From positions 132,353 to 196,352 of the forward strand of contig JABJOE010000007.1 in NCBI GenBank assembly GCA_018664485.1: a stretch of 64,000 bases of DNA, written 5' to 3'. The number at the start of each line of letters is the position of its first letter. The stretch's first letter is position 1. This stretch comes from Candidatus Uhrbacteria bacterium. GTDB taxonomy: Bacteria; Patescibacteriota; Patescibacteriia; UBA9934. The notes beneath the pieces were generated by a model. It worked only from the letters and a program-made list of their open reading frames with translations, was not told the origin of the DNA and did not search any database. A program made the translations under genes and the position numbers. Shown here one piece after another: positions 1 through 47,382 of this stretch.

Positions 1-147
1 GAAAAGCGCTACCAAGCCTATTACAATATTAGCGCCTACAATCTTGAAAATTTTGACGTTACCATAGACACCACCCCACTCACACTTGATGAGGTATTTG
101 AGCAAACCGTAATAGCAATCGCTACACATTTACACAGCGAATCTTAA
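1..147 (+). CDS. 3' end (C-terminal 48 aa) of a gene that begins upstream of the window. The tail (...FDVTIDTTPLTLDEVFEQTVIAIATHLHSES*) resembles the C-termini of small P-loop nucleotide kinases (cytidylate-kinase-like), but it is too short to assign.
   Basis: Open frame 1 runs from the window edge to TAA at 145-147. Composition is protein-like. The short DT/LTLDEVxE motif pattern is typical of NMP-kinase C-termini. This is inference only. Confidence 0.3.
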   Translation, partial: EKRYQAYYNISAYNLENFDVTIDTTPLTLDEVFEQTVIAIATHLHSES

Positions 148-5596: not shown

Positions 5597-5719
5597 AAAA
5601 CTTTTGGCGAAGGTCGGGCACATTCGTACACCACAAACTATCTTTGCAGCATGCACCTATACAAATTTATAAAATTTTGAATTCCGCGACAGTACAACAA
5701 TATTCAAACAGAAAACTTA

Positions 5720-7348
5720 CTACCAAGTCGGATTACAATCTACTTCATTCCCTTCTACATCCTTACAGTAAAACCAACCAAATGCTGACGTAGAGTTTGC
5801 ACAGTTAGCAAAGCTGTCAGCCTGCAAAGCACCCAGCCAATCCAACACAACGTCGCCGGCAAGAGCTACTTCCATCTCTGCTATCTCGAGCGCACTCATA
5901 TTATCCAATGCCTCCTGCGAGATATCATCAACAGATGTAGCGTTTGTGAACACTTTACATCCTTCCCCACCGGCAGGTGCGAGTCCACATGGATCGCTAT
6001 CACATAAAGCGCTCAAGAGCGGAAAATCATCATCGGCGCCTGTACGATCATCAACTTCATTATCATATTGATATTCATACTCATACTCAAAGACTGTGTC
6101 ACCTGCCTCATATACAGATTCAACAAGATCATACGCTCGACACCCCATACTCTCGTCAGCAAGAGCATCTTGTCTCAACGTGTCGCAATCAAGCGTATCG
6201 CCATCAGCCGGGTATACAAGCTCGCTGCAAGCATCAAAGCTTGTGTCTAAAACCGGAGCATCATAATAAAGACAGTATAGTTTCTCTCCAGTAATAGACG
6301 ATGCAGCAGCAGCATCTAACACATCCTGCTCATCCTTATCTACAAGGTATCCGCACATCGAGCTCGATGGCGTGGCACCGCTCACACTGGCTAACCCTGA
6401 AAATACCTCTTTACAACGCAAACATGCAAAACCATTTTCACTCTCGGCAGATGCAGCACACACTTCATACGCAGTATCACATCCACTATAGAAACACTCG
6501 TCTCCAACTTGGATAGTGGCTTCGGTATCTCCAACGTCATCAACAGTTCCTTTATTTCCACAATCTTCCTGTCCTGAAATCTCAGGGGTAATAGTAAGCC
6601 CCGCAACTTCCATCGCTTCACAGGTAGATTCAGGATCAATGAACACAACCGTACGAATGGCTGGCGGTGTTAGGCGGTTCAAGTTCGTAAGATTCGGATC
6701 TACCATCTGCCCCATAGCAACTGCTGACAGCAAAAGCACAAGACCCGTTACTGCATTTTTAACTCTCTCCTTAGCTCTTCCGATACGTCCACTATCCCCT
6801 CGAGCCAACATCCACTGTAATCCCCCTACCATTATGACAAGCACAACAAGTAATGAAGCTGTGGGAAGTAAAAAGTTGTATACGACGTTAATATAATCCG
6901 GAATACTATCCACCTCCTCGGCAGATCCAATTACAATACTTAAGTCCACTGCCTCTGGTGGTCGGTAACAATAATGCTCACCTGGAATACAATCAGCTGG
7001 CTGGCCCTGATCCCACTCATAGGGAACTTCCTCCCCATCAATCTCTGTTAAGTTATTTTCACATTCATATTGAGACCAACATTTATCATTATCTGCCGGC
7101 GTTGAACCCGTCGTATAGCAAGCCATGTAATTTGAGCCTGCATCACTACACGCGGTACGACAAGATGCAGTATCTTCTAGATTCGACTCCGATAGCTGAG
7201 TAGCTCCGGCAGAAGTCTTGCACCAACAATCACAACTAGCCTCCGAATCCTCAGCAAAAACAAAACCAACCGAGCCAAAAAGCATTGAAACGGTTAGGAG
7301 CGAAATAAAAATGGCTGTTATCCTCCGCATACACAAATATGAACTCAT
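5720..7348 (-). CDS. Secreted or membrane-anchored Cys-rich acidic protein with an internal two-helix pilin-like (VirB2/TrbC-like) hydrophobic hairpin.
   Basis: N-terminal signal peptide (MRRITAIFISLLTVSMLFGSVGFVFA; the likely start is the internal ATG around 7330). More than 40 Cys residues in Asp/Glu-rich extracellular regions. The central segment LLPTASLLVVLVIMVGGLQWMLARGDSGRIGRAKERVKNAVTGLVLLLSAVAMGQMV is TM helix - basic loop - TM helix. No enzymatic motif is present. Confidence 0.6.
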   Translation of the reverse strand: MSSYLCMRRITAIFISLLTVSMLFGSVGFVFAEDSEASCDCWCKTSAGATQLSESNLEDTASCRTACSDAGSNYMACYTTGSTPADNDKCWSQYECENNLTEIDGEEVPYEWDQGQPADCIPGEHYCYRPPEAVDLSIVIGSAEEVDSIPDYINVVYNFLLPTASLLVVLVIMVGGLQWMLARGDSGRIGRAKERVKNAVTGLVLLLSAVAMGQMVDPNLTNLNRLTPPAIRTVVFIDPESTCEAMEVAGLTITPEISGQEDCGNKGTVDDVGDTEATIQVGDECFYSGCDTAYEVCAASAESENGFACLRCKEVFSGLASVSGATPSSSMCGYLVDKDEQDVLDAAAASSITGEKLYCLYYDAPVLDTSFDACSELVYPADGDTLDCDTLRQDALADESMGCRAYDLVESVYEAGDTVFEYEYEYQYDNEVDDRTGADDDFPLLSALCDSDPCGLAPAGGEGCKVFTNATSVDDISQEALDNMSALEIAEMEVALAGDVVLDWLGALQADSFANCANSTSAFGWFYCKDVEGNEVDCNPTW

Positions 7349-10468: not shown

Positions 10469-12475
10469 TTGACCGGCACTCGCATAGCGGCCGTGACAGG
10501 GCCCTATCTGAGGCGAATGAATAATATTCGAGCCGGATCCAAGTACTTGCAATGGCCCCCAACACATATGGTGCAAAAAAGACGTACCACGACGCATAGC
10601 AATTCACGCAATCGTCGTCATATTAAAAAAAGTTCAGGTAGCCCAGCAAAACCTCGAACAAGCAGCGTAGCTAAAGCTGGAACAACTAGTAAGGCGAAAG
10701 CTGCAACGAAGCGTCCAACTACCGCTCGCTCAACTTCTGCGCGTTCAAGCGGACGACCGCATACCAAGTCGAAAACAACAACGTACAAAACTCCATCAGG
10801 AGATTCTGTTCGAGTGATTGTACTTGGAGGCCTCGAAGAGGTCGGTCGTAACTGTACCCTCATTGAGTACAAGAACGACATTATTATAATCGACATGGGA
10901 CTCGAGTTCCCAGAAGAAAACATGCCTGGAGTTGATTACATCATCCCAGACATGACATACCTCAAGGGCAAAGAAAAGAATGTCCGAGGAGTTATTATCA
11001 CCCATGGTCACTACGACCATATCGGGGCAATCCCCCACACTATTCCAAACATCGGGAACCCACCAGTATATGCGCTTCCGATTGCAGCTGGAATTATCAA
11101 AAAACGTCAGACAGACTTTAAAACTCCTGCAATCAATCTTAAGCAAATTACAATTGCTGACGAGTTGCAGCTTGGTGTATTTAAAGTTCATTTCTTCCAC
11201 ATCAACCACAACATTCCAGACTCAGCCGGAATCGTGATCGAAACTCCTATGGGAACGATCTGTCACACCGGTGACTGGAAGTTTGATTACCACCCTGTTG
11301 GAACTGAACCGTCTGATTTCCACAAGATCGCGCGCGTTGGTGAAGCTGGAGTTGCCCTACTTATGGGAGACTCTACAAATGCCTGCATGCCAGGACACCA
11401 AACATCAGAGCGTGTTATTGGTGAGGAAATTAAGGGTATTCTGGAGCGTGCAAAGGGACGAGTAATCGTCGGAACCTTCGCGTCTCTACTTTCACGAGTG
11501 AAGCAGATTATTGAAATCTCAGAAACTCTAGGGCGTAAAGTTGCGCTAGACGGATACTCGATGAAAGCCAACGTTGAAATCGCTCGAGAACTTGGATTCA
11601 TCCACGTGAGCGACAAAACAATGATCACAACAGATCAAATTAAAAACTATTCTGACGACAAAGTTACAGTTATCTGTACTGGAGCTCAGGGAGAAAAACG
11701 TGCAGCACTTTCACGAATTGCAACCGATGAACATCGTTCAATCCGCATGAAGCCGACTGACACTGTAATCTTCTCAAGTTCTGTTATTCCAGGTAACGAA
11801 GCTTCTGTTCAGCGACTGAAAGATACTTTCTACCGCAAACGAGCAACTGTGATCCATAAAGACATCATGGACGTTCACGCAGGTGGACATGCAAAGCAAG
11901 AGGATATTAAGCTCATGCTTTCGCTCTTCAAACCTACGTACTACATGCCAATTGAGGGGAACCACTTCCTACTACGTGAAAACGCAGAGGTCGCCTACTC
12001 AATGGGGTGGAAAGAAAAGAACGTTCTCGTTGCCGACAATGGTCAGGTGATCACTCTGTCAAAAGACAAGCGATCCGGAGAGCCTATCGTCAACATGACA
12101 AAAGAAAAGGTACCTACAAATTACGTCTTCGTTGACGGACTAGGTGTAGGAGATGTGTCTGAAGTTGTGTTGCGAGATCGTCGAGCGATGTCAGAGGACG
12201 GAATGATCGTAGCGATTTTCCAGATCGAGAAAAAGACTGGAAAGCTAGTCGGTAATCCAGACCTTGTGAGTCGAGGATTCATTTACATGAAAGAAAACCG
12301 AAAGCTTATCGGTGCTGCAATGACTGTAGTCCGAAAAGCTGTGGCTGATAGCGATCCTAAATCCGCAGCAGATCCACATTACATCAAGGGAAATGTGCGA
12401 GATGCTCTTGGAAAATTCCTATACAAACAAACTGAGCGTCGACCTATGATCCTCCCTGTGATGATTGAGGTGTAG
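10469..12475 (+). CDS. rnj: Ribonuclease J (metallo-beta-lactamase / beta-CASP family) with an N-terminal basic low-complexity extension.
   Basis: Core from VRVIVLGGLEEVGRNCTLIEY...; MBL motif GVIITHGHYDHIGAIPH; beta-CASP and C-terminal domain conserved (...HAGGHAKQEDIKLM...). The first ~110 aa are Lys/Arg/Ser/Thr-rich. In-frame alternative starts at 10517 and 10573 are possible. Confidence 0.9.
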   Translation: MTGTRIAAVTGPYLRRMNNIRAGSKYLQWPPTHMVQKRRTTTHSNSRNRRHIKKSSGSPAKPRTSSVAKAGTTSKAKAATKRPTTARSTSARSSGRPHTKSKTTTYKTPSGDSVRVIVLGGLEEVGRNCTLIEYKNDIIIIDMGLEFPEENMPGVDYIIPDMTYLKGKEKNVRGVIITHGHYDHIGAIPHTIPNIGNPPVYALPIAAGIIKKRQTDFKTPAINLKQITIADELQLGVFKVHFFHINHNIPDSAGIVIETPMGTICHTGDWKFDYHPVGTEPSDFHKIARVGEAGVALLMGDSTNACMPGHQTSERVIGEEIKGILERAKGRVIVGTFASLLSRVKQIIEISETLGRKVALDGYSMKANVEIARELGFIHVSDKTMITTDQIKNYSDDKVTVICTGAQGEKRAALSRIATDEHRSIRMKPTDTVIFSSSVIPGNEASVQRLKDTFYRKRATVIHKDIMDVHAGGHAKQEDIKLMLSLFKPTYYMPIEGNHFLLRENAEVAYSMGWKEKNVLVADNGQVITLSKDKRSGEPIVNMTKEKVPTNYVFVDGLGVGDVSEVVLRDRRAMSEDGMIVAIFQIEKKTGKLVGNPDLVSRGFIYMKENRKLIGAAMTVVRKAVADSDPKSAADPHYIKGNVRDALGKFLYKQTERRPMILPVMIEV

Positions 12476-15201: not shown

Positions 15202-15657
15202 GTTCGGGATACGAGACAGTCGCCCTGCGCCCAGCGCTCAGGGAGGAAAGTCCGAACACCGCGTAGGCAGCAATGTTTACGGATACAGAACGTCGCTAAC
15301 GGCGACCGGGATATAGCATTATCAAACGAGGAATGAATTCGTTCTTTCCTCGAGCCATGAATTTAGGTTCACGGCCACACCAATGTAAACCTAGGGAAAG
15401 TGCCACAGAGACAATACTAGTTTGGCTCCGGTCAAACAAAAGGTGAAAAGTGATTTGAGGTTTGAGATCAGATGATCTAGGTAACTGTTACCAACAAGCC
15501 ACATTTCTCGCCCCACGGTGACGTGGTGGCGTGGTAAACCCGTTCTGGTGCAAGAGCAAGTTTGGTAGCTCGCTCGACCGGCATAGCAATATGTCGGCTA
15601 GATAGATGACTGTCGCCTCGCAAGAGGATACAGAATTCGGCTTACAAGTCTCCCGAC
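15202..15657 (+). ncRNA. rnpB: RNase P RNA (bacterial type A).
   Basis: Universally conserved P4 strands are present: 5' GGGAGGAAAGTCCGAACACC (15241-15260) and 3' ACAGAATTCGGCTTACAAG (about 15630-15648). The 5' AGACAGTCGCC and 3' TAGATAGATGACTGTCGCC segments match E. coli M1 RNA positions. It is a GC-rich island with a promoter upstream and a terminator downstream. Confidence 0.85.
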
Positions 15658-15668
15658 GAACATCAAGA

Positions 15669-15723: not shown

Positions 15724-17124
15724 ATGAATAGAGCAAATCTCTTTTTCACAGCCGTTCTTGTACCGCTAGATTTTATTACCCTCATAGCGGCAGCAACGGC
15801 AGCTTATAGCCTTCGTTTCTCAGAATCGATCCAGGGCATTCGGCCGATTATATTCGAGCTTTCTTTTCAGCAATATTTCGATGCTGCAATATCGTTTTCT
15901 CTAGTATGGCTTTTGATCTTTGCACTTGCAGGCCTTTACGCTGTCCGCCCACATCGACTCGCGGTTGAAGCGACTCGTGTACTACTTGCCTGCTCCGCCG
16001 GAATCGCGGTTGTGCTCGCCATCGCCTTTTTCTCACGCGAATTATTCGACTCACGTTTCATCGTAATTGCCGTATGGGTCCTTGCAGTTATATTTATTGT
16101 TATTGAAAGGCTTCTGGTGCGTGCAATCCAGCGATCACTTCGACGATACGGAATCGGCATGCAGCGCGTTTTGATAATTGGTAAAACAAAATCCGGTCAG
16201 GCCCTTCGAAAATATTTTGAAGCGTATCCTCGTCTTGGCTATGAAGTCATCGGACATGCTGCACTATTCAACGAATCAACAAAAGACAAAATCCTTGCTC
16301 TAAAAAAGCGTGAAATGGTCGACATGGTCCTTCTTGCAAACGGGGACGCTGATCGAAAAGAGGTACAAGAGATTAAAACTTTTACAGATATTGAACATCT
16401 CGGATTCTTATATTCTGCGGAGCTCGTTCCAGGATCTGGAGCGCGGCCAATCGTCCATACACTTGCAGGGCAACCCGTAATTGAAATCCCAAAAACACCA
16501 CTAGATGGTTGGGGCGCTATCTACAAGCGTGCTTTCGATATTATCGTCTCACTTATTTTGATAATTTTGACACTGCCAATCCAACTTATCGCAGCAATTG
16601 CGATTATCATTGAAAATCCAGGCCCTATTTTGTTTGTACATAAACGAGTTGGCCAAGGTGGCCGGATCTACAACCATGCTAAGTTCCGGTCAATGATTAA
16701 AGATGCCCACAAATATCGCTTCGATCCTGATTTTATAAAGAAATACGGAAATGAACGTGAGGGCACTCCCCTTTTTAAACTTGAGCATGATCCACGAATA
16801 ACACGCGTCGGTGCGATAATGCGAAAACTCTCCATCGATGAAATCCCTGAATTCTACATGGTACTTTTTGGAAAGATGAGCTTGATCGGACCACGACCTC
16901 ATCTCCCTGGAGAGGTAGAACAATACAAGGATCAACATAAACGAGTCCTTACAATCAAACCCGGCATTACAGGTATGGCACAGGTCGGAGGGCGTGCTGA
17001 CTTAAACTTCGACGAAGAAGTTCGGCTCGATATGCACTACATTGAAAACTGGAGCCCTTGGCTCGATCTCGTTATCCTTATAAAAACACCACTAGTCGTA
17101 TTTTTTGGAAGAGGCGCGTACTGA
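15724..17124 (+). CDS. Polyprenyl-phosphate glycosyl-1-phosphate transferase (WbaP/CpsE-type 'bacterial sugar transferase'); initiating enzyme of a glycan pathway.
   Basis: N-terminal multi-TM region plus the C-terminal sugar-transferase domain (ILFVHKRVGQGGRIYNHAKFRSM...PGITGMAQVGGRADLNFDEEVRLDMHYIENWSPWLDLVIL). TATAAT at 15710-15715 lies 8 nt before the ATG, so the mRNA is leaderless. Confidence 0.9.
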   Translation: MNRANLFFTAVLVPLDFITLIAAATAAYSLRFSESIQGIRPIIFELSFQQYFDAAISFSLVWLLIFALAGLYAVRPHRLAVEATRVLLACSAGIAVVLAIAFFSRELFDSRFIVIAVWVLAVIFIVIERLLVRAIQRSLRRYGIGMQRVLIIGKTKSGQALRKYFEAYPRLGYEVIGHAALFNESTKDKILALKKREMVDMVLLANGDADRKEVQEIKTFTDIEHLGFLYSAELVPGSGARPIVHTLAGQPVIEIPKTPLDGWGAIYKRAFDIIVSLILIILTLPIQLIAAIAIIIENPGPILFVHKRVGQGGRIYNHAKFRSMIKDAHKYRFDPDFIKKYGNEREGTPLFKLEHDPRITRVGAIMRKLSIDEIPEFYMVLFGKMSLIGPRPHLPGEVEQYKDQHKRVLTIKPGITGMAQVGGRADLNFDEEVRLDMHYIENWSPWLDLVILIKTPLVVFFGRGAY

Positions 17125-40497: not shown

Positions 40498-41376
40498 ATG
40501 CCATCTGTACGAGACATACCCTCTATTACTGACAAAAAGCTTCATTCACTGGAGAAAAAAGCGAACTTGATTCGCCAAGATGTTTTAAAAATGCTCCGCG
40601 AAGCCGGCTCTGGTCATAGTGCCGGACCACTCGGACTTGCCGATATTTTTACATCTTTATATTTTCACGTACTCAAACATGACCCTAAGAAACCAGGCTG
40701 GAGCGATCGTGACCGTCTATTGCTTTCATGTGGCCATGTAGTTCCTATTCGTTACGCTGCAATGGCGCATGCCGGATACTTCCCAAAGAAAGATCTGATG
40801 ACATTGCGAAAGCTTGGATCCAAACTTCAGGGACATCCGGAAGTGACACAGATGAAATCGCTCGAAAATACGTCTGGACCACTCGGCGACGGTGGACCTC
40901 AGTCCTGTGGAATGGCTTACGTTGCAAAAGCAGACAAACTTCCTTGGCACACATACTGTGTACTTTCTGAGGGAGACTTGGAAGCAGGAATTACCTGGGA
41001 GGCTGCGATGTTCGCCGGTAAAAATAATCTCCACAATCTCACATGGATAATTGATCGTAACAATATTCAAATCGACGGCTACACAGAGGACATCATGCCC
41101 CTTGAGCCATTGGCAGATAAGTTTGCAGCATTTAATTGGACCGTCATTGAAATAGATGGTCACAACATAATGCAATTCGTTGACGCATGTCGTTACGCAC
41201 AGACAATCTGGGAGAACCCGGTCGTAATTATCGCCCACACAGTCCCAGGAAAAGGAGTAGACTTCATGGAGTTTGAACCAGGGTGGCACGGAAAGCCTCC
41301 GGGAAGCGATGAGCTACGTGATGCATTACGTGAATTACGAACACTCGGAGGAACTATTGAAAGTGAATCAGAATAA
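40498..41376 (+). CDS. Transketolase, N-terminal (thiamine-diphosphate-binding) subunit of a split enzyme.
   Basis: GHSAGPLGLADIFTSLYF...DRDRLLLSCGHVVPIRYAAM...GPLGDGGPQSCGMAY...NLTWIIDRNNIQIDG. The ORF-track start at 40486 is TTG; the ATG at 40498 is the likely start. Confidence 0.9.
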   Translation: MPSVRDIPSITDKKLHSLEKKANLIRQDVLKMLREAGSGHSAGPLGLADIFTSLYFHVLKHDPKKPGWSDRDRLLLSCGHVVPIRYAAMAHAGYFPKKDLMTLRKLGSKLQGHPEVTQMKSLENTSGPLGDGGPQSCGMAYVAKADKLPWHTYCVLSEGDLEAGITWEAAMFAGKNNLHNLTWIIDRNNIQIDGYTEDIMPLEPLADKFAAFNWTVIEIDGHNIMQFVDACRYAQTIWENPVVIIAHTVPGKGVDFMEFEPGWHGKPPGSDELRDALRELRTLGGTIESESE

Positions 41377-41377
41377 T

Positions 41378-42280
41378 ATGAAAAATGTAAAAACAATTTG
41401 GATCTGGGTTAGCTCCATAATCATCATCCTATTAGCTGCAATCATACTTGTCTCTCTACGCGGAGCGAGTACATCATCAATGGATCCCGTATATATAGAT
41501 TACGGCTACGATGAGGTATTCATGGAATCAGAATTCGCAGAGTCTGCTGCATCATCGCTGTACCTTGCCGATGGTAGCCTTGATAGGAGTTACGATGACG
41601 ATGTTTCTGAACAAAATTATATTATTAAAACTGGAAGTATTGAGATGCGAGTGGATTCCGTTGCAGATGCCATGGAACAGCTCGAGACTACAGCGGCAAC
41701 ATACGCTGGCTACATCCAATACAGTTATATTGATCGATCCGATGAATTCGTTGACGGGTTCGCAACCGTTCGTGTGGACGCTTCAGTATTCGCTGCTGCC
41801 ATGGACGATATTCAGGGACTTGCAACCGCAATTCACTACTCACAAGTTTCAAGCGACGATGTTACGGAACAGGTTTTCGACATCCAAGCACGACTCTCAA
41901 ACGCTCAAGCAGAAGAAGAGAGCTATCTAGAAGTCCTTAACATCGCAACAAGTGTAGAAGATATCCTAGACGTCAGACGCTACCTCTCACAGGTGCGTGA
42001 AACGATAGAACGTTACGAGGCACAACTTGAATACTACGAAACAGCTACGTCTCTTGCCACGATCAGCGTTGAGATGACTGAAGAGACCTCTATCTTGTTA
42101 GACTCAGATACTTTTAGACCTAGTCAGTCCGTAGTAGAAGCAGCACAGACAGTTGTGTCACTAGCACAATCTCTAGTGATCGCAGTGATATGGATCATCA
42201 TCGTTGGAGGAGGAATCCTCATCCCTATCGCTATCTTCTACTGGCTTGCAGGTAAGGTATATAGACGACTGAAAAAATAG
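41378..42280 (+). CDS. DUF4349-like membrane protein (N-terminal TM, acidic and coiled-coil middle, C-terminal TM pair), inserted between the two transketolase halves.
   Basis: The likely start at ATG 41378 (MKNVKTIWIWVSSIIIILLAAIILV) lies 2 nt after the tktN stop. The C-terminal TM is VIAVIWIIIVGGGILIPIAIFYWLAG. The gene ends 2 nt before tktC. I recall this architecture as DUF4349, with moderate certainty. Confidence 0.5.
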   Translation: MKNVKTIWIWVSSIIIILLAAIILVSLRGASTSSMDPVYIDYGYDEVFMESEFAESAASSLYLADGSLDRSYDDDVSEQNYIIKTGSIEMRVDSVADAMEQLETTAATYAGYIQYSYIDRSDEFVDGFATVRVDASVFAAAMDDIQGLATAIHYSQVSSDDVTEQVFDIQARLSNAQAEEESYLEVLNIATSVEDILDVRRYLSQVRETIERYEAQLEYYETATSLATISVEMTEETSILLDSDTFRPSQSVVEAAQTVVSLAQSLVIAVIWIIIVGGGILIPIAIFYWLAGKVYRRLKK

Positions 42281-42282
42281 AT

Positions 42283-43272
42283 ATGAAAAAGGAGCAACCA
42301 AAACTAGCAAGAAGCTGGAAAAATCCAAGTCGTCTTAAGCTAATCCCTACCCGTAATGGTTTCGGTGAGGGATTAGTCGAAGCTGGAAAGGCTGACAAGA
42401 ACGTAATGGTGATCTCTGCTGACCTTACAGACTCAACAAGGGCAAGCTACTTCAAAGATGCCTTCCCTGATCGGTTTGTTCAGTTCGGAGTTGCAGAGCA
42501 AGCGATGGCAGCAACAGCGGCGGGTATGGCTCTCGCCGGAAAGACGGTTTTCATCGCAAGCTACGCCGCATTTTCACCTGGACGAAACTGGGAACAGATT
42601 CGAACAACTGCTTGTCTACAAAAAGCTAACGTAAAAATAGCTGGAGCGCATGCTGGGATCTCCGTCGGTCCAGATGGTGCAACTCACCAGATGGTTGAAG
42701 ACATTGCAATTACGCGTGTACTCCCTGAAATGAAAGTACTAGTACCATGTGACTCAATCGAGACTCGTAAAGCGACGATTGCTGCAGCAAAAATGAAAGG
42801 ACCGGTATATGTCCGCTTTGCAAGATCATCAAGCCCTGTCTTTACAACAAACGCAACTCCGTTTGCCGTTGGTAAAGCGCAGGTCTTCCGTGACGGATCC
42901 GACCTTGCCATCATCGCCTGTGGACCTCTTGTATATGAAGCCCTGATGGCGGCAGAGGAACTTTCAAAGCTCGGTATCGAAGCTCGAGTTATCAATAACG
43001 TGAGTGTAAAGCCGATGGACGAGAAGACAATCGTGCAAGCTGCAAAAGACTGTGGTGCGATCGTCACAATAGAGGAAGCTCAAGCGGCTGCCGGAATGGG
43101 TTCAGCGGTATGTGAAATAACATCGCAACACTTCCCCGTCCCAGTAGAACGTATGGGCATGCAAGACCGCTTCGGTGAATCCGGAGAGCCCAACGAGCTA
43201 CTAGAGCACTTCGGATTAACTGCTCCGTATATTGTAAAAGCAGCCAAACGAATAATGAAAAAGAAGAAATAG
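42283..43272 (+). CDS. Transketolase, C-terminal (pyrimidine-binding plus C-terminal domain) subunit.
   Basis: NGFGEGLVEAGKADKNVMVISADLTDSTRASYFKDAFPDRFVQFGVAEQAMAATAAGMALAGKTVFIASYAAF... Confidence 0.9.
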   Translation: MKKEQPKLARSWKNPSRLKLIPTRNGFGEGLVEAGKADKNVMVISADLTDSTRASYFKDAFPDRFVQFGVAEQAMAATAAGMALAGKTVFIASYAAFSPGRNWEQIRTTACLQKANVKIAGAHAGISVGPDGATHQMVEDIAITRVLPEMKVLVPCDSIETRKATIAAAKMKGPVYVRFARSSSPVFTTNATPFAVGKAQVFRDGSDLAIIACGPLVYEALMAAEELSKLGIEARVINNVSVKPMDEKTIVQAAKDCGAIVTIEEAQAAAGMGSAVCEITSQHFPVPVERMGMQDRFGESGEPNELLEHFGLTAPYIVKAAKRIMKKKK

Positions 43273-43341
43273 TCATAGGCTCAATTTTGACAGAAAAGGG
43301 GTAAAACAAGGCTTTTTACCTCTTTTTTTGTTCATTGGCAC

Positions 43342-43370
43342 TTGACAAAAGTGCTATTTTGTGCTACTAT
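43342..43370 (+). promoter_or_regulatory. Promoter (TTGACA-N17-TACTAT) at the head of the cassette-like array.
   Basis: TTGACA 43342-43347, a 17-nt spacer, TACTAT 43365-43370. Confidence 0.5.
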
Positions 43371-43376
43371 GTGAGG

Positions 43377-43498
43377 GTAGTTAAATTTCAAGTCTCTTTA
43401 CAATTTAGTGAATGTGAGCCCACGTTGATATTTTGGGTGATGCCTCTAGGCTCACTCTACCCCCAGCTATAGCCTATGAGTTATAGCTATTTTTATTT
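43377..43498 (+). ncRNA. Candidate small structured RNA or attenuator leader of about 120 nt (promoter to intrinsic terminator).
   Basis: Closing helix GGGTAG / CTACCC. Internal hairpin GTGAGCC...GGCTCAC. Terminal hairpin AGCTATA (43465-43471) / TATAGCT (43483-43489), followed by ATTTTTATTT. Confidence 0.4.
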
Positions 43499-43585
43499 GG
43501 GAAAAAGATGAAAGGACAGGCCTTTTCATCTCGGTCTCAAACCGAGTGTTCACACAGCTCTCGTTAGCACGAGAACACCCAATAC

Positions 43586-43684
43586 ATTCTCGGTAATCAC
43601 TGAGTGAGGGTGGCAAGCTGTACAAGATGTCCTGGCGCCTATGTCATGGACAGCTATCCCGACCATGGGATAGGAGAACATACA
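43586..43684 (+). repeat. Array repeat copy A (M2-type module only), immediately upstream of ORF1.
   Basis: ...GAGGGTGGCAAGCTGTACAAGATGTCCTGGCGCCTATGTCATGGACAGCTATCCCGACCATGGGATAGGAGAACATACA-ATG is homologous to copies B, C and D. The SD (AGGAG) is embedded in GGGATAG, which can pair with the upstream CTATCCC. Confidence 0.6.
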
Positions 43685-44047
43685 ATGGAAGAAAAGCTTG
43701 CAACCGATCAGAAGCGCCTCTCAAATGAGTTCCTGCTTGAATTCTTGAGTGCGACTAACAATGACGAGCGCTGCAAAGCGCTTATCAAGGAGTCATACCG
43801 ACTCTGGCCGAACAGGGATGGAAATCTCTACGATGGAGCCGACCACCCGTACTGTGTCTGGGAGAACAATGCCACAACTGCCGTTTCACGCGAGGAGAAT
43901 GCAAAGATCTGTCTCCAACACGCGAAATATGCAGACAGCAACTGCCCGTTCGCAGATGGCGGAGTCCTCTACGACTTTGTCACAACTAGTGTACTTCTGT
44001 GGGAGCCAGAAAAAGCCCGCATCAAAGAAGTTTACGAGTCACTGTAG
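43685..44047 (+). CDS. Cassette ORF1: hypothetical 120-aa soluble protein.
   Basis: Start ATG 43685, with GGAG 8 nt upstream. The ORF-track start at 43604 would read through the repeat. No recognised family. Confidence 0.5.
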   Translation: MEEKLATDQKRLSNEFLLEFLSATNNDERCKALIKESYRLWPNRDGNLYDGADHPYCVWENNATTAVSREENAKICLQHAKYADSNCPFADGGVLYDFVTTSVLLWEPEKARIKEVYESL

Positions 44048-44058
44048 TTCTACTATCT

Positions 44059-44269
44059 CCCCAAGCAACTCGCTTGGGGCTCCGCAGAGCACATCACACA
44101 GTGGTGGATTCCGCAGAGCAGGAATACTTCCCGCTTCAATACAGCCCTCGACCAACGAGGACATCTAATACATTCCCGGAGACTACCGGGTGAAGATGGC
44201 AGTCTGTGTAATATATCCTGACATTTGTGTCATGGATAACTATCCCTTGGTACGGATAGAAGTATACAT
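44059..44269 (+). repeat. Array repeat copy B (modules M1+M2) between ORF1 and ORF2.
   Basis: M1 contains hairpin CCCCAAGC-AACT-GCTTGGGG (44059-44079) and a direct repeat CCGCAGAGC x2. M2 contains CCTCG-ACCAA-CGAGG, CCGG-AGACTA-CCGG, the GGATAACTATCC palindrome, and CTATCC-CTTGGTAC-GGATAG just before the ATG. Confidence 0.65.
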
Positions 44270-44656
44270 ATGAGCGCGATCCTCTTTCTCCTGCTTTCAA
44301 GTCTCCTAGCACACGCAGACGACATCGTCACTACAACAAGGGCCGAAACGGTTGTCGGTTATAGTGACGAGACTCTGATCTCCATAACTTCCGAAGTTGG
44401 AAGAGAGTGCTACGCCGCACGAAAGTGGCGACACTCAACTCTCGTATGCAGCGACATAGCAGTCTACACAATCCTTACGCACTCAGGTACATCATTGAAA
44501 AGTGTCAGTGTACCCATGTCGGCAACGACCTGGAATACTGCTCCGGTACCTGGTAGCCGAATCGAAATTAGGTGCGAAGTAACAGTAGATGAGTACAACA
44601 ACACAAACGGGTACCCGCTATTCATCCGGCGCCTTGATGAGTGCTGGGCGAACTAG
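44270..44656 (+). CDS. Cassette ORF2: hypothetical secreted 128-aa protein (signal peptide, 6 Cys).
   Basis: MSAILFLLLSSLLAHADD signal peptide. No recognised family. Confidence 0.5.
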   Translation: MSAILFLLLSSLLAHADDIVTTTRAETVVGYSDETLISITSEVGRECYAARKWRHSTLVCSDIAVYTILTHSGTSLKSVSVPMSATTWNTAPVPGSRIEIRCEVTVDEYNNTNGYPLFIRRLDECWAN

Positions 44657-44751
44657 TCAAACCCTTCTCCCCCTGGTACTAACCGGGGGCTCGATATAGA
44701 GCATGACAGAATCGTGCCTTGCGTCGAGCTAGATCATATCTGGCCTACATG

Positions 44752-44876
44752 CAGCCCTCGACCAACGAGGACTTCCAATAATCCGGATTTCCCGGTGAGG
44801 ATGACAAGCTGTACTAGATATCCTGCCCCTCGGGTCATGGATAGCTATCCCTTGGTACGGATAGAAGTAATAAGAG
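44752..44876 (+). repeat. Array repeat copy C (M2 module); the preceding M1 is replaced by a different GC hairpin (44669-44689).
   Basis: GCCCTCGACCAACGAGGACTTCCAATAATCCGGATTTCCCGGTGAGGATGACAAGCTGTACTAGATATCCTGCCCCTCGGGTCATGGATAGCTATCCCTTGGTACGGATAGAAGTAATAAGAG-ATG is about 95% identical to copy D across M2. Confidence 0.65.
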
Positions 44877-45404
44877 ATGCCAGAACATCAGAAAACTGAG
44901 GCTATGCTAAAAATGATGGCCAGCCGGACGGCAAAGGAGCTTCCGCCCCTTCCAGATGGATCCAAAATCATTCTGGAAGACGCACCTTCCGGACTCGTTC
45001 TAGCCAGAAACAGTCAGCGAGGAGGAATGTTTAGAAGGTGGAACGATGACAGAGGTCTTTTTCGCCGATTACTAGATCTGCTTCTTGGGTACAGTAGGAA
45101 AGGAGTACCCGTTCGACTGTTCGACCTGACCTGCTCAAACCAGTTCGACCTAGTTGAGTCAGAGCACGTCATAAAGGAAGCGTACATGGAGCTTCGGTGC
45201 ATCATCCAAACAAAGCCCAAACAGGTCTACCGAGAACTGTTTGGTAAAGCTGCACCTCCTCACTGGTCAAATAAGGAGGAGATGTGTATGCATAGACTAA
45301 ATGATGCATTCAAAATCAATCAACGGAACCGCACTGATCTCTCTGGGGTCTTCGCGATCCGGTATGCGTGCGAATGCGCCATAAAAGCAAGCTACCCACT
45401 CTAG
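44877..45404 (+). CDS. Cassette ORF3: hypothetical 175-aa protein.
   Basis: ATG directly follows repeat C. No recognised family. Confidence 0.5.
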   Translation: MPEHQKTEAMLKMMASRTAKELPPLPDGSKIILEDAPSGLVLARNSQRGGMFRRWNDDRGLFRRLLDLLLGYSRKGVPVRLFDLTCSNQFDLVESEHVIKEAYMELRCIIQTKPKQVYRELFGKAAPPHWSNKEEMCMHRLNDAFKINQRNRTDLSGVFAIRYACECAIKASYPL

Positions 45405-45410
45405 TACCTT

Positions 45411-45610
45411 CCCCAAGCTCTAAGCTTGGGGCTCCGCAGAGCACATCACATCGTGGTGGATTCCGCAGAGCAGGATAATATCCCGCTTAAATACAGCCCT
45501 CGACCAACGAGGACTTCCAATAATCCGGATTTCCCGGTGAGGATGACAAGCTGTACTAGATATCCTGCCTCTCGGGTCATGGATAGCTATCCGGAAGGAT
45601 AGTGGTAGTC
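45411..45610 (+). repeat. Array repeat copy D (M1+M2) between ORF3 and ORF4.
   Basis: CCCCAAGCT-CTA-AGCTTGGGG (45411-45431), then CTCCGCAGAGC...TTCCGCAGAGC, then M2, ending with the GGATAGCTATCC palindrome and CTATCC-GGAA-GGATAG. Confidence 0.65.
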
Positions 45611-45886
45611 ATGAAAATTCAAACAAAAACAGCTAAAGCGTTCCTTGAAGATAAAGTTGGCACAGCCACCATCCAGCTAATGTGGCTCCTGTTCACAGTC
45701 GAATGGGCATGGATGTTCTCTGGTGTAGCAGAGTACATGATCGCAGCACCAATCGGTGGAACGATCGTAACCTTTATTATCGCCGCGGCAAGTGAAAGCC
45801 GCGAGCAAGCAGAGGCCAGACAAGTGTCGCTAATGTTCCTCGCCTCTCCGCTTGCGTTCGCTATCTACGTCGTCCCTATGTTTTGA
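45611..45886 (+). CDS. Cassette ORF4: hypothetical 91-aa membrane protein (2-3 TM).
   Basis: Start ATG 45611 (MKIQTKT...). The ORF-track GTG at 45602 lies inside the repeat. An intrinsic terminator follows at 45913-45962. Confidence 0.5.
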   Translation: MKIQTKTAKAFLEDKVGTATIQLMWLLFTVEWAWMFSGVAEYMIAAPIGGTIVTFIIAAASESREQAEARQVSLMFLASPLAFAIYVVPMF

Positions 45887-45912
45887 TGAGCTTCACACCT
45901 CTTCAATTCCCT

Positions 45913-45962
45913 CCCCCGCGCCATCTGGTATAGCGGGGGTTTGAGTTTGGGCTTTATTTTTT
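45913..45962 (+). terminator. Rho-independent terminator ending the cassette-like array.
   Basis: CCCCCGC (45913-45919) / GCGGGGG (45933-45939) with a 13-nt loop, followed by TTTGAGTTTGGGCTTTATTTTTT. Confidence 0.55.
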
Positions 45963-46032
45963 ACCAATAAACTGCGTGAGCTCAGCAAATTAAGGTTGAT
46001 TTCATTACCTATAGCTGTTTGCGTGAACTGCG

Positions 46033-46758
46033 TTGTTAGCGTACGATACGCCTATTATGCGACTGAATAAATATATTGCTCAATCAGGATACTGTTCACG
46101 CCGAAAGGCTGATCAGCTAATTGAAGACGGTGTGGTGACCATCAATGGGAATCCATCAGAGGTAGGTCAAAAAGTGGCCCACAATGATGTTGTTGCAGTG
46201 AACGGTCAAAAAATAGAAATAAACGAAAAGGAAGTTTATTTAGCTTTTCACAAACCATTTGGCGTAATCTGTACCGCTGACGAAAAAGCCGACAATACTA
46301 TTTACGACTACCTTCCTACTGATCAACGACTTCTGTATGTTGGTAGACTCGACGTTGAATCAAGTGGACTCCTGATCATGACAAGCGACGGGAATGTTGC
46401 AAACGCGATTGCGCACGGAAGCGGAAGTCACGAAAAAGAATACATCGTAACTGTCGACAAACCGATCAATCGAGCATTCGCTAAAAAAATGCGTGACGGT
46501 GTAATCATCGAAGGAGAAAAAACAAAACCAGCTCTTATCAAAAAAATGCGAGATGACCGATTCTCTCTCATCATCACACAAGGACGCAACCGACAGGTCA
46601 GAAAAATGTGTGAAGCTTTTGGATACAAAGTAAAAACACTTCGACGCGTTCGCGTTATGAACGTAAAGCTAGGAGCGCTTGGCGAAGGAAACTACCGGCC
46701 ACTTACAAAAAATGAACGCCGAGGACTTTTGGCATCGCTAGGAATGAAACAAGCTTAA
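46033..46758 (+). CDS. Pseudouridine synthase, RsuA/RluB family (S4 domain plus catalytic domain).
   Basis: S4 RNA-binding N-terminus (RLNKYIAQSGYCSRRKADQLIEDGVVTING). Catalytic-Asp motif region (LLYVGRLDVESSGLLIMTSDG). C-terminal ...RQVRKMCEAFGY. Confidence 0.85.
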   Translation: MLAYDTPIMRLNKYIAQSGYCSRRKADQLIEDGVVTINGNPSEVGQKVAHNDVVAVNGQKIEINEKEVYLAFHKPFGVICTADEKADNTIYDYLPTDQRLLYVGRLDVESSGLLIMTSDGNVANAIAHGSGSHEKEYIVTVDKPINRAFAKKMRDGVIIEGEKTKPALIKKMRDDRFSLIITQGRNRQVRKMCEAFGYKVKTLRRVRVMNVKLGALGEGNYRPLTKNERRGLLASLGMKQA

Positions 46759-46794
46759 GGCCGGTTAATTTCGTTTTCCACTAACTACAAGTAT

Positions 46795-47382
46795 GTGATG
46801 AATAAACGGACGGTACAAATCATTGATTTTTTGAAAACCATTGAGGCTTTTAAAACGATTGAGCGAGAAATCCCAACGTCAGCCGGGCGACCAGAGAGCG
46901 ACGCTGAGCACTCTTGGCACCTAGCCATGTTCCTTATCGCCTTTCAAGCAGAACTACCACCAACCCTCAACATGCAACGAGCACTGGAACTCGCACTCAT
47001 GCATGATCTTGTTGAAATCTACGCAGGTGATACCTTTGCTTTTGATATTGAAGGTCGTAAAACAAAAAAGGACCGAGAAGAACGAGCAGCTGTTCGTCTT
47101 TTTGATAAACTGCCAGACGACATCAAAGAACGTTTTACAAAATTATTCCGAGAATACGAAGACCAAACCTCAATCGAAGCACAAATCGTAAAGGCACTCG
47201 ACAAATTGCAGCCAAGCCTCGTAAATTCTCAACTTGAAGGTGGCACTTGGGCAAAGCATGATCTTTCATATGAGAAAATCATGAAATACAAACGCCAATA
47301 CGTAGAGCCATTTCCGTTCATCGAATCACTAATGGACGACATACTACAGGGCTCTGTAAACGAAGGACATCTTAGTCCGTAA
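46795..47382 (+). CDS. HD-domain phosphohydrolase (YfbR-like 5'-deoxynucleotidase family).
   Basis: SDAEHSWHLAM ... ALMHDLVEIYAGDT: a His, HD, Asp metal-site pattern of the HD_3 / YfbR type. Confidence 0.75.
   Translation: MMNKRTVQIIDFLKTIEAFKTIEREIPTSAGRPESDAEHSWHLAMFLIAFQAELPPTLNMQRALELALMHDLVEIYAGDTFAFDIEGRKTKKDREERAAVRLFDKLPDDIKERFTKLFREYEDQTSIEAQIVKALDKLQPSLVNSQLEGGTWAKHDLSYEKIMKYKRQYVEPFPFIESLMDDILQGSVNEGHLSP

Follow-up and report, generated by a model that had tools for sequence, protein, structure and literature searches.

Structured repeats between four orphan genes of a Candidatus Uhrbacteria chromosome: a possible intercistronic RNA module

In the early region of bacteriophage T7, processing hairpins for RNase III stand between the genes, leave protective hairpins and influence translation downstream. 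In cluster K mycobacteriophages, the start-associated sequence (SAS; GGGATAGGAGCCC) is found 3–7 nucleotides (nt) 5′ of the ATG of many unrelated genes, mostly of unknown function, and about half of these genes have an upstream inverted repeat (extended SAS, ESAS) with 17-bp arms and a variable spacer of 4–13 nt (PMC3203893; PMC12699233). SAS function is thought to be related to expression, and the authors of the ESAS work found no support for RNA pairing (PMC3203893; PMC12699233). Promoter early stem-loops (PeSLs) of T4-type phages are stop-to-start regulatory cassettes around orphan open reading frames (ORFans), which combine a sigma-70-type early promoter with a stem-loop; they are found in hyperplastic ORFan regions, in which recombination between copies shuffles genes (PMC2839356; PMC4122927). 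Here, we describe two repeated modules, M1 and M2, associated with a block of four small open reading frames (ORFs A–D) in the chromosome of a Candidatus Uhrbacteria bacterium, which belongs to the candidate phyla radiation (CPR). The block was analysed within a stretch of 64,000 nt (contig JABJOE010000007.1, positions 132,353–196,352 of the forward strand), hereafter the window.

M2 is a repeat of ~130 nt, each copy of which (A–D) stops immediately 5′ of the start codon of a small plus-strand ORF. M1, a second module located ahead of ORFs B, C and D, opens with a GC hairpin few bases after the preceding stop codon, and the two modules together make up an intergenic unit of ~210 nt. A preliminary description of this DNA had read the end of M2 as a switch of three short elements, in which a central CTATCC would pair with either of two flanking GGATAG strings and so hide or expose a Shine–Dalgarno (SD) sequence. 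We tentatively propose, with a probability of about 0.4, that M1 and M2 form a transcribed intercistronic RNA module, which may act in mRNA stability, processing and the setting of translation, and which belongs to a horizontally acquired block of four orphan genes.

Conserved fold of the two modules

The fold of M2 was assessed by scoring an explicit structure on the alignment of the four copies, with controls in which the 3′ partners were slid by 1–3 columns and with 500 shuffles. The structure comprises 37 pairs in six helices (P0–P5; Table 1), and 95.7% of its cells are paired, compared with 33–41% for the slid partners. Six pairs have changed on both sides, against 0–2 in the slid controls; this number was attained by six of the 500 shuffles, and the covariation score lay above all 500. 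The terminal loops vary freely, and the junction residues AAUA, UGA and CA are invariant in all copies. Two upstream stems named in the preliminary description, CCTCG/CGAGG and CCGG/CCGG, are indeed present and correspond to P1 and P2, respectively. The consensus fold of M1 consists of the post-stop hairpin, a long imperfect hairpin and a small GGAU..AUCC-type hairpin, and when copies B, C and D are compared, six of its 26 pairs show changes in both partners. As these double changes keep the helices of both modules, the ~210-nt unit behaves as a selected single-stranded structure. The lower stems of P4 and P5 share UAUCC/GGAUA, twin invariant helices that a common factor may recognise.

A coding explanation for the repeat was rejected because reading frames in M2 are not kept among the copies, the alignment of which contains 1-nt and 5-nt indels. 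A 34-amino-acid (aa) ORF on the minus strand of M2 copy C was judged spurious and, when used as a search handle, returned the same locus only.

Searches for relatives of the RNA with Rfam yielded no match at E ≤ 1 within 42000–47000, including ROSE and fourU, and only RNase P, tRNA-Ala and 5S across the whole window. The RNase P RNA match (15204–15660) spans 457 nt compared with the 367 positions of the model and so hints at insertions in the CPR form. Run unfiltered on the window, a covariance model built for M2 (R1) recovered the four copies with 127–148 bits, with the next hit at 12 bits (E = 0.34), and revealed no further copies either in the window outside the 2.7-kb block or in 13 related loci. 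A pattern spanning the P4/P5 junction produced four single matches in unrelated organisms among GTDB genomes and five matches in JGI metagenomes, none of which aligned to the repeat by blastn, and two viral scans with core patterns returned no matches. In IMG/VR, 44 contigs (L005–L048, 39 of them from sample 3300045988), which apparently represent one locus, contain CATGGACAGCTATCCC, a 10-nt loop and GGGATAG, with 23 nt identical to the P4/P5 junction of copy A. In L006 (3834–3866), the sole contig checked, the motif falls within the coding sequence ATG-GAC-AGC-TAT-CCC at the start of an ORF (MDSYPLL...), and the matches were therefore treated as chance. The locus itself is covered by 16 contigs from several samples, which are 99.96–100% identical, and the M2 fold is known from this one locus in one near-clonal population.

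Hairpins P4 and P5 and the start codon

The string on which the switch had been based was read from sequence and alignment in all four copies as GGA(T/C)A(G/A)–CTATCC–loop–GGATAG, followed by 8–12 nt and the ATG. The loops are also as originally noted, namely GACCAT in copy A, where it is closed by a 7-bp stem, CTTGGTAC in B and C, and GGAA in D. The gap between the last GGATAG and the ATG measures 11 (A), 10 (B), 12 (C) and 8 nt (D). A 17-mer around the palindrome formed by the first two elements, GTCATGGATAGCTATCC, has four occurrences in 64 kb with at most three mismatches, compared with 0.12 expected; these are copies of one repeat and not independent occurrences. A fourth complementary element, AT(A/G)TCC, is situated 15 nt 5′ of the first GGATAG and had been overlooked.

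This fourth element, rather than CTATCC as had been proposed, is the partner of the first GGATAG, and their pairing forms helix P4. In copy A, the U>C change at alignment column 102 is matched by an A>G change at column 80 (ATGTCC/GGACAG), which keeps P4; column 107 is still an A, so that the palindrome pair 102/107 is lost. Moreover, the first GGATAG and CTATCC abut without a loop, so that a single strand can form at most a 4-bp stem with a 4-nt loop. The energy of this mini-hairpin was −1.8 to −3.0 kcal/mol, compared with −7.9 to −10.8 for P4 and −6.9 to −8.0 for P5, and its formation would require both P4 and P5 (together about −15 to −18 kcal/mol) to be open. The partition function was computed for each M2 copy plus 30 nt of the ORF at 10, 25, 37 and 50 °C. 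Over this range, the probability of the palindrome pairing was at most 0.005, and that of the strand-swapped outer pairing at most 0.035. P4 and P5 had ensemble probabilities of 0.91–1.00 in copies A and B, and P4 of copy D reached only 0.29–0.49. Folding the leaders against alternative structures, a check proposed in the preliminary description, thus yielded two stable hairpins, which coexist in the minimum-free-energy (MFE) fold and in the ensemble of copies A and B, with no viable alternative pairing, and the alternation of CTATCC between the two GGATAG strings was not borne out.

The AUG lies outside P5, which ends 8–12 nt upstream of it. For copies A, B and D, the predicted pairing probability of P5 at 50 °C is still 0.98 or higher. 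None of the 12 stem positions of this helix differs between copies, and P5 therefore offers no covariation. The earlier observation of a conserved downstream stem with a variable loop is correct, but it had been taken as the signature of an RNA structure, and for this purpose it demonstrates conservation of the two arms and no more. Their separation of 4, 6 or 8 nt is more in keeping with a hairpin than with a duplex binding site.

The strong SD claimed for copy A corresponds to AGGAG, which overlaps the P5 stem by 2 nt; overall, the logic of a hidden SD is weak here. Copy D has AGGA at the loop–stem boundary of P5, and no 4-mer of the AGGAGG core precedes ORFs B and C. The 3′ end of the 16S rRNA lies outside the window. 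A 4-mer of this core is found at −20 to −4 in 4 of the 45 ORFs of the window, which is at or below chance, and upstream regions of the host are 66% A/T. Several host genes (e.g. at 15724, 23109 and 37790) have a TATAAT-like box 6–8 nt 5′ of the start codon, which suggests leaderless mRNAs. As the host is SD-poor, sequestering of an SD is not a natural control point in this organism; for genes preceded by A/T-rich sequence without an SD, control is more plausibly exerted by local structure than by SD strength. A hairpin inside the footprint of the 30S subunit, where P5 is predicted to lie, could lower initiation.

A translational riboswitch or RNA thermometer, in which CTATCC would toggle and P0–P3 would be a sensor common to the four ORFs, has in its favour the junction fold of P0–P3, with the covarying stems, variable terminal loops and conserved junction residues often seen in aptamers, as well as the location of P5 and the overlap of AGGAG with its 3′ arm in copy A. 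However, a compensatory pair ties the upstream GGATAG into P4, and in the computed ensembles the palindrome hairpin is negligible and P5, which does not include the AUG, is stable at high temperature in copies A, B and D. As modelled, the three-part ribosome-site switch corresponds to two separate stable hairpins, which do not support a riboswitch, and M1/M2 is unlikely to be a ligand-driven or heat-driven three-element switch.

The orphan block and the tktC–rluB junction

The 2.7-kb block sits between tktC, the gene of the transketolase C-subunit (42283–43272), and an rluB-like pseudouridine synthase gene (46057–46758). This junction was compared in the 13 related loci, whose TktC proteins are 78–85% identical. 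In relatives L071–L079, rluB follows tktC after 4–50 nt, and in L080 and L081 a 365-nt spacer is found (L080 10994–11358). The junction of L082 holds a thymidine kinase gene plus an unknown gene on the other strand (5693–6705), and that of L070 a sigma-70 gene of ~65% GC (L070 4003–4996). The latter junction has a promoter homologous to that of the window (ACTTGACAAAA...TGCT..ATGT.AGGG), with different downstream cargo. As the junctions of the relatives do not contain the block, it is a lineage-specific insertion at a variable spot, and the tktC–rluB junction (window positions 43273–43400 and 45960–46060) is a variable hot spot among related Uhrbacteria.

The GC content at third codon positions (GC3) is 0.51–0.58 in the four ORFs, compared with 0.37–0.43 in the flanking genes, and the four proteins share no similarity with one another. 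Orphan status was assigned by homolog search for ORFs A–C, and through family-library and viral scans only for ORF D. ORFs B and C gave only self-matches among 5.8 billion proteins. ORF A, searched among 1.8 billion representatives, matched itself, plus spurious weak Cys-repeat matches to large proteins, the best of which (P0123) is alone among them in having Frizzled (Fz) domains. None of the four ORFs matched Pfam, PHROG or PADLOC, and ORFs A, B and D had no viral relatives in a scan that did not include ORF C. AlphaFold models of ORFs C and A, with predicted local distance difference test (pLDDT) values of 46 and 52, were too poor for fold searches. The DNA of the block had no blastn match in phage and plasmid collections, and Pfam annotation of the window revealed no encoded integrase, recombinase, transposase or reverse transcriptase.

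The promoter just past tktC is the sole plus-strand promoter-like site found for the four ORFs, and a promoter scan detected none on this strand within M1 or M2. The block thus has a single plus-strand promoter upstream of ORF A and a sole terminator after ORF D. At the end of the block, the terminator hairpin resembles the M1 post-stop hairpins in its CCCC..GGGG style; it was recognised by inspection of the sequence and was not listed by the terminator scan because its loop exceeds 8 nt. The leader between the promoter and M2 copy A aligns with the start of M1 and folds with an MFE of −50.3 kcal/mol (z = −2.9). As a separate observation, this leader and its terminator-like hairpin, which have no Rfam match, could be an attenuator of the whole block or a small RNA. 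For ORF A, gene callers choose an in-frame ATG at 43646, within the 3′ arm of P4 (CATGGACAG), which gives 133 aa. The equivalent ATG is in frame only in copy A and out of frame in B, C and D, which makes 43685 the likelier start.

The copies are mosaic. Over P0–P4, C equals D at 95 of 98 positions, and B and A are 66–73% identical to C/D. Over P5 and the spacer, C matches B at 29 of 35 positions and D at only 21 of 35, and for M1, B resembles D, with C divergent. One of the switches in relatedness falls within CTATCC, beside the centre of the 12-bp palindrome. A single-nucleotide polymorphism (SNP) at 44828 (C>T, variant L049) converts the closing pair of the P4 apical loop from C–G to U–G and renders copy C D-like at this point, and it may be a footprint of gene conversion. 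The mosaic relatedness shows exchange between copies, which are 66–97% identical over the M2 core and P4 and would recombine with one another on this account.

Several features of the surroundings are recorded here for completeness. A gene for an HD-domain (YfbR-like) protein (46795–47382), between rluB and a methyltransferase gene, is missing from all relatives examined, where rluB and the methyltransferase gene adjoin or overlap, with a gap of no more than ~75 nt in L080/L081; it is a second small lineage-specific insertion adjoining the block. A DUF4349 gene (41273–42280) lies between the genes of the N- and C-terminal transketolase subunits and overlaps the end of the N-subunit ORF; this arrangement is kept in most relatives examined, L070 and L082 being the exceptions. 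Next to uvrA, a 542-aa protein (5720–7348) has a type IV secretion pilin-like domain.

Table 1. Coordinates of the block features in the window, and helices of M2 in columns of the four-copy alignment.
Feature	Position	Strand	Details
Promoter, sigma-70-like	43342–43370	+	TTGACA–17 nt–TACTAT with TG; just past tktC terminator
Structured leader	43377–43552	+	promoter to first M2 copy (~175 nt); M1-like CCCCCAGC start, two further hairpins
Terminator-like hairpin with T-run	43465–43498	+	within leader
M2 copy A	43553–43684	+	core P0–P3 43553–43622; covariance model 140.8 bits
AT(A/G)TCC, copy A	43627–43632	+	
Hairpins, copy A	P4 43628–43652; P5 43654–43673		P4 ATGTCC.../...GGACA; P5 CTATCC(C)...(G)GGATAG; AGGAG 43672–43676
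Motif, copy A	GGACAG 43648–43653; CTATCC 43654–43659; GGATAG 43668–43673; ATG 43685	+	
ORF A	43685–44047	+	120 aa; cytoplasmic-looking, 4 Cys, orphan
M1 copy B	44048–44139	+	post-stop GC hairpin 44058–44078, long imperfect hairpin, small GGAA..TTCC hairpin
M2 copy B	44140–44269	+	core 44140–44208; P4 44214–44238; P5 44240–44259; covariance model 148.4 bits
AT(A/G)TCC, copy B	44213–44218	+	
Motif, copy B	GGATAA 44234–44239; CTATCC 44240–44245; GGATAG 44254–44259; ATG 44270	+	
ORF B	44270–44656	+	128 aa; signal-peptide-like N-terminal segment, orphan
M1 copy C	44657–44749	+	divergent version; post-stop hairpin 44669–44689
M2 copy C	44750–44876	+	core 44750–44813; P4 44819–44843; P5 44845–44864; covariance model 138.9 bits
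AT(A/G)TCC, copy C	44818–44823	+	
Motif, copy C	GGATAG 44839–44844; CTATCC 44845–44850; GGATAG 44859–44864; ATG 44877	+	copy singled out in the preliminary description
ORF C	44877–45404	+	175 aa; orphan
M1 copy D	45405–45491	+	near copy B; post-stop hairpin 45411–45431; small GGAT-AAT-ATCC hairpin
M2 copy D	45492–45610	+	core 45492–45555; P4 45561–45585; P5 45587–45602; covariance model 126.6 bits
AT(A/G)TCC, copy D	45560–45565	+	
Motif, copy D	GGATAG 45581–45586; CTATCC 45587–45592; GGATAG 45597–45602; ATG 45611	+	
ORF D	45611–45886	+	91 aa; small hydrophobic protein, probably in membrane
Intrinsic-terminator-like hairpin	45913–45962	+	CCCCCGC...GCGGGGG with T-rich tail
P0	columns 4–9 with 68–73		closes junction
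P1	columns 10–14 with 21–25		CCUCG/CGAGG
P2	columns 40–44 with 51–55		CCCGG/CCGGG
P3	columns 27–31 with 59–63		leads to P2
P4	columns 79–88 with 93–103		first hairpin, 10 bp
P5	columns 105–110 with 119–124		second hairpin, closest to ATG, 6–7 bp

Interpretation and comparison with known systems

Under the proposed RNA module, the block would be read as one mRNA from the promoter at 43342–43370. The GC hairpin of M1 after each stop codon would cap and protect the 3′ end of the upstream cistron, and before each start codon M2 would fold into a three-way-junction core (P0, P1 and P3–P2) followed by hairpins P4 and P5. P5 would lie inside the ribosome footprint and leave an A-rich single-stranded spacer open before the AUG. 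Each cistron would thus be insulated, and processed fragments would have both ends shielded, in an organism with an RNase J gene (10469–12475). The outcome might be a uniform, damped initiation of translation, possibly mediated by a trans-acting factor with the invariant twin GGAUA/UAUCC helices as its recognition site. The same modules may also serve as a substrate for recombination between copies.

Several points weigh against this proposal. The four copies, three of them effectively independent, all derive from one near-clonal population, which leaves the covariation statistics thin, and the scored structure was partly derived from the same four sequences. The antisense strand folds nearly as well as the sense strand (alifold −25.5 versus −28.1 kcal/mol), and G–U pairs occupy only 6 of 132 paired cells; this near-equal folding of both strands may reflect a role as single-stranded DNA. 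In copy C, the probability of P5 is 0.00–0.55, depending on the length of ORF included, as it competes with a pairing into the ORF that is not conserved in the other copies. Finally, if only stability or insulation were at stake, a simpler leader than one of ~210 nt and nine helices would do.

Of the alternatives, the best placed, though we consider it unlikely, is that the repeats act above all at the DNA level, as joints of a gene-cassette system, with the RNA folds secondary. Orphan-gene cassettes would be captured and shuffled behind a resident promoter, either by homologous recombination like that of T4-type PeSLs or by site-specific recombination on a folded single strand like that of integron attC. 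The exchange evident from the mosaic copies is the chief argument for this view, in which the repeats serve also, or mainly, as recombination joints. It would account for four short, same-strand, promoterless orphan ORFs of foreign GC3 behind one promoter, for the same promoter standing at the same junction with other cargo in L070, for the yet other cargo, or none, at the junction of the remaining relatives, and for the mosaic copies, the switch in relatedness next to the palindrome centre and the D-like state conferred on copy C by the SNP. However, the window encodes none of the enzymes sought, M1 and M2 contain no GTTRRRY/RYYYAAC core (the sole match, at 43380, is in the leader, outside the repeats), and the variable separation of the P5 arms is unlike a duplex core site. 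No variants of cassette order were found, with all sampled contigs showing one fixed order, and the multi-branched ~210-nt unit is unlike attC and lacks the promoter that defines a PeSL. Shuffling of cassettes is partly compatible with the intercistronic RNA module. A more specific version, in which M1/M2 would be joints of an integrase-independent cassette system in a CPR bacterium, with the resident promoter as the expression site, orphan genes arriving or being shuffled as repeat-bounded units, and the repeats doubling as mRNA leaders and trailers for genes that lack such signals themselves, appears quite improbable.

We regard it as more improbable still that the repeat is a non-functional by-product, either of serial duplication of gene plus leader with gene conversion or of a selfish element of the miniature inverted-repeat transposable element (MITE), repetitive extragenic palindromic (REP) or BOX type. 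The near-identity of C and D over ~100 nt and the mosaic copies fit ongoing gene conversion, and no function is demonstrable. Against this stand the mutual dissimilarity of the ORFs, the twelve pairs changed on both sides that preserve the helices, the strict placement of a hairpin after the stop codon and of P5 before each ATG, and the confinement of the repeat to this block within the window, the 13 related loci and the pattern scans. The riboswitch or thermometer, with CTATCC and P5 behaving as described above, an SD-poor host, and neither an Rfam match nor a second locus in the window, the related loci or the collection scans, has very little probability left.

If functional, the module would show how a reduced, SD-poor CPR genome gives acquired orphan genes a standard, portable expression context, and it would add an undescribed RNA fold of ~130 nt to the few structured RNAs known from these organisms. 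As M2 is known from one locus in a near-clonal population, comparative proof is not currently possible and the practical value is limited. The locus also provides a caution, in that what looked like a tidy switch of three elements fell apart when folding energies and a fourth complementary element were considered.

Compared with known regulatory leaders, M2 resembles SD-sequestering riboswitch platforms and ROSE/fourU thermometers in its conserved hairpin just 5′ of the start codon and its multi-helix leader domain. Mutually exclusive helices define riboswitch platforms, whereas P4 and P5 of M2 coexist, and riboswitch classes have a widespread or described aptamer, whereas M2 is without an Rfam family or phylogenetic spread. 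Thermometers employ a weak hairpin over SD and AUG that melts at physiological temperature; P5 does not include the AUG, has a marginal SD overlap in one copy and is predicted to be stable to 50 °C. The T7 sites for RNase III are alike in that structured elements recur between the cistrons of one polycistronic mRNA. Their substrates are typically longer than P4 and P5, with no known sequence relation, and for M1/M2 processing is a conjecture.

Integrons and clusters of attC sites lacking integron-integrases (CALINs) share short, same-strand, promoterless orphan cassettes, structured repeats, one upstream promoter and a variable chromosomal spot. In attC, R″ (RYYYAAC) and R′ (GTTRRRY) bound an imperfect hairpin of 57–141 nt; the M1/M2 repeats have no such cores, are ~210 nt long and branched, precede the first ORF and are missing after the last. 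IntI and tyrosine recombinases are absent from the window by Pfam annotation, although a CALIN lacks the integrase by definition. REP elements and the related bacterial interspersed mosaic elements (BIMEs), enterobacterial repetitive intergenic consensus (ERIC) sequences, BOX elements and MITEs occur in many dispersed copies; within the 64 kb searched with the covariance model, M2 is limited to the 2.7-kb block.

With respect to SAS, copy A reads GGGATAGGAGAAC, with two mismatches to GGGATAGGAGCCC at 5 nt from the ATG, and so lies within the limit of at most two mismatches. Copies B, C and D have 5–6 mismatches, and the one match in the window compares with 0.70 expected by chance. M2 is chromosomal and not from a mycobacteriophage, its arms are 6–7 nt long and its neighbouring helices covary, so that the relation to SAS/ESAS is one of analogy and not of membership. 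M1 and M2 match PeSLs in the polyG/polyC-type stem-loop and in the ORFan context; they differ in having no promoter inside, in being much longer and multi-helical, and in their location on a CPR chromosome, with no shuffled variants or circles observed. The M2 fold is thus undescribed, but its kind is known: regulatory cassettes repeated between orphan genes.

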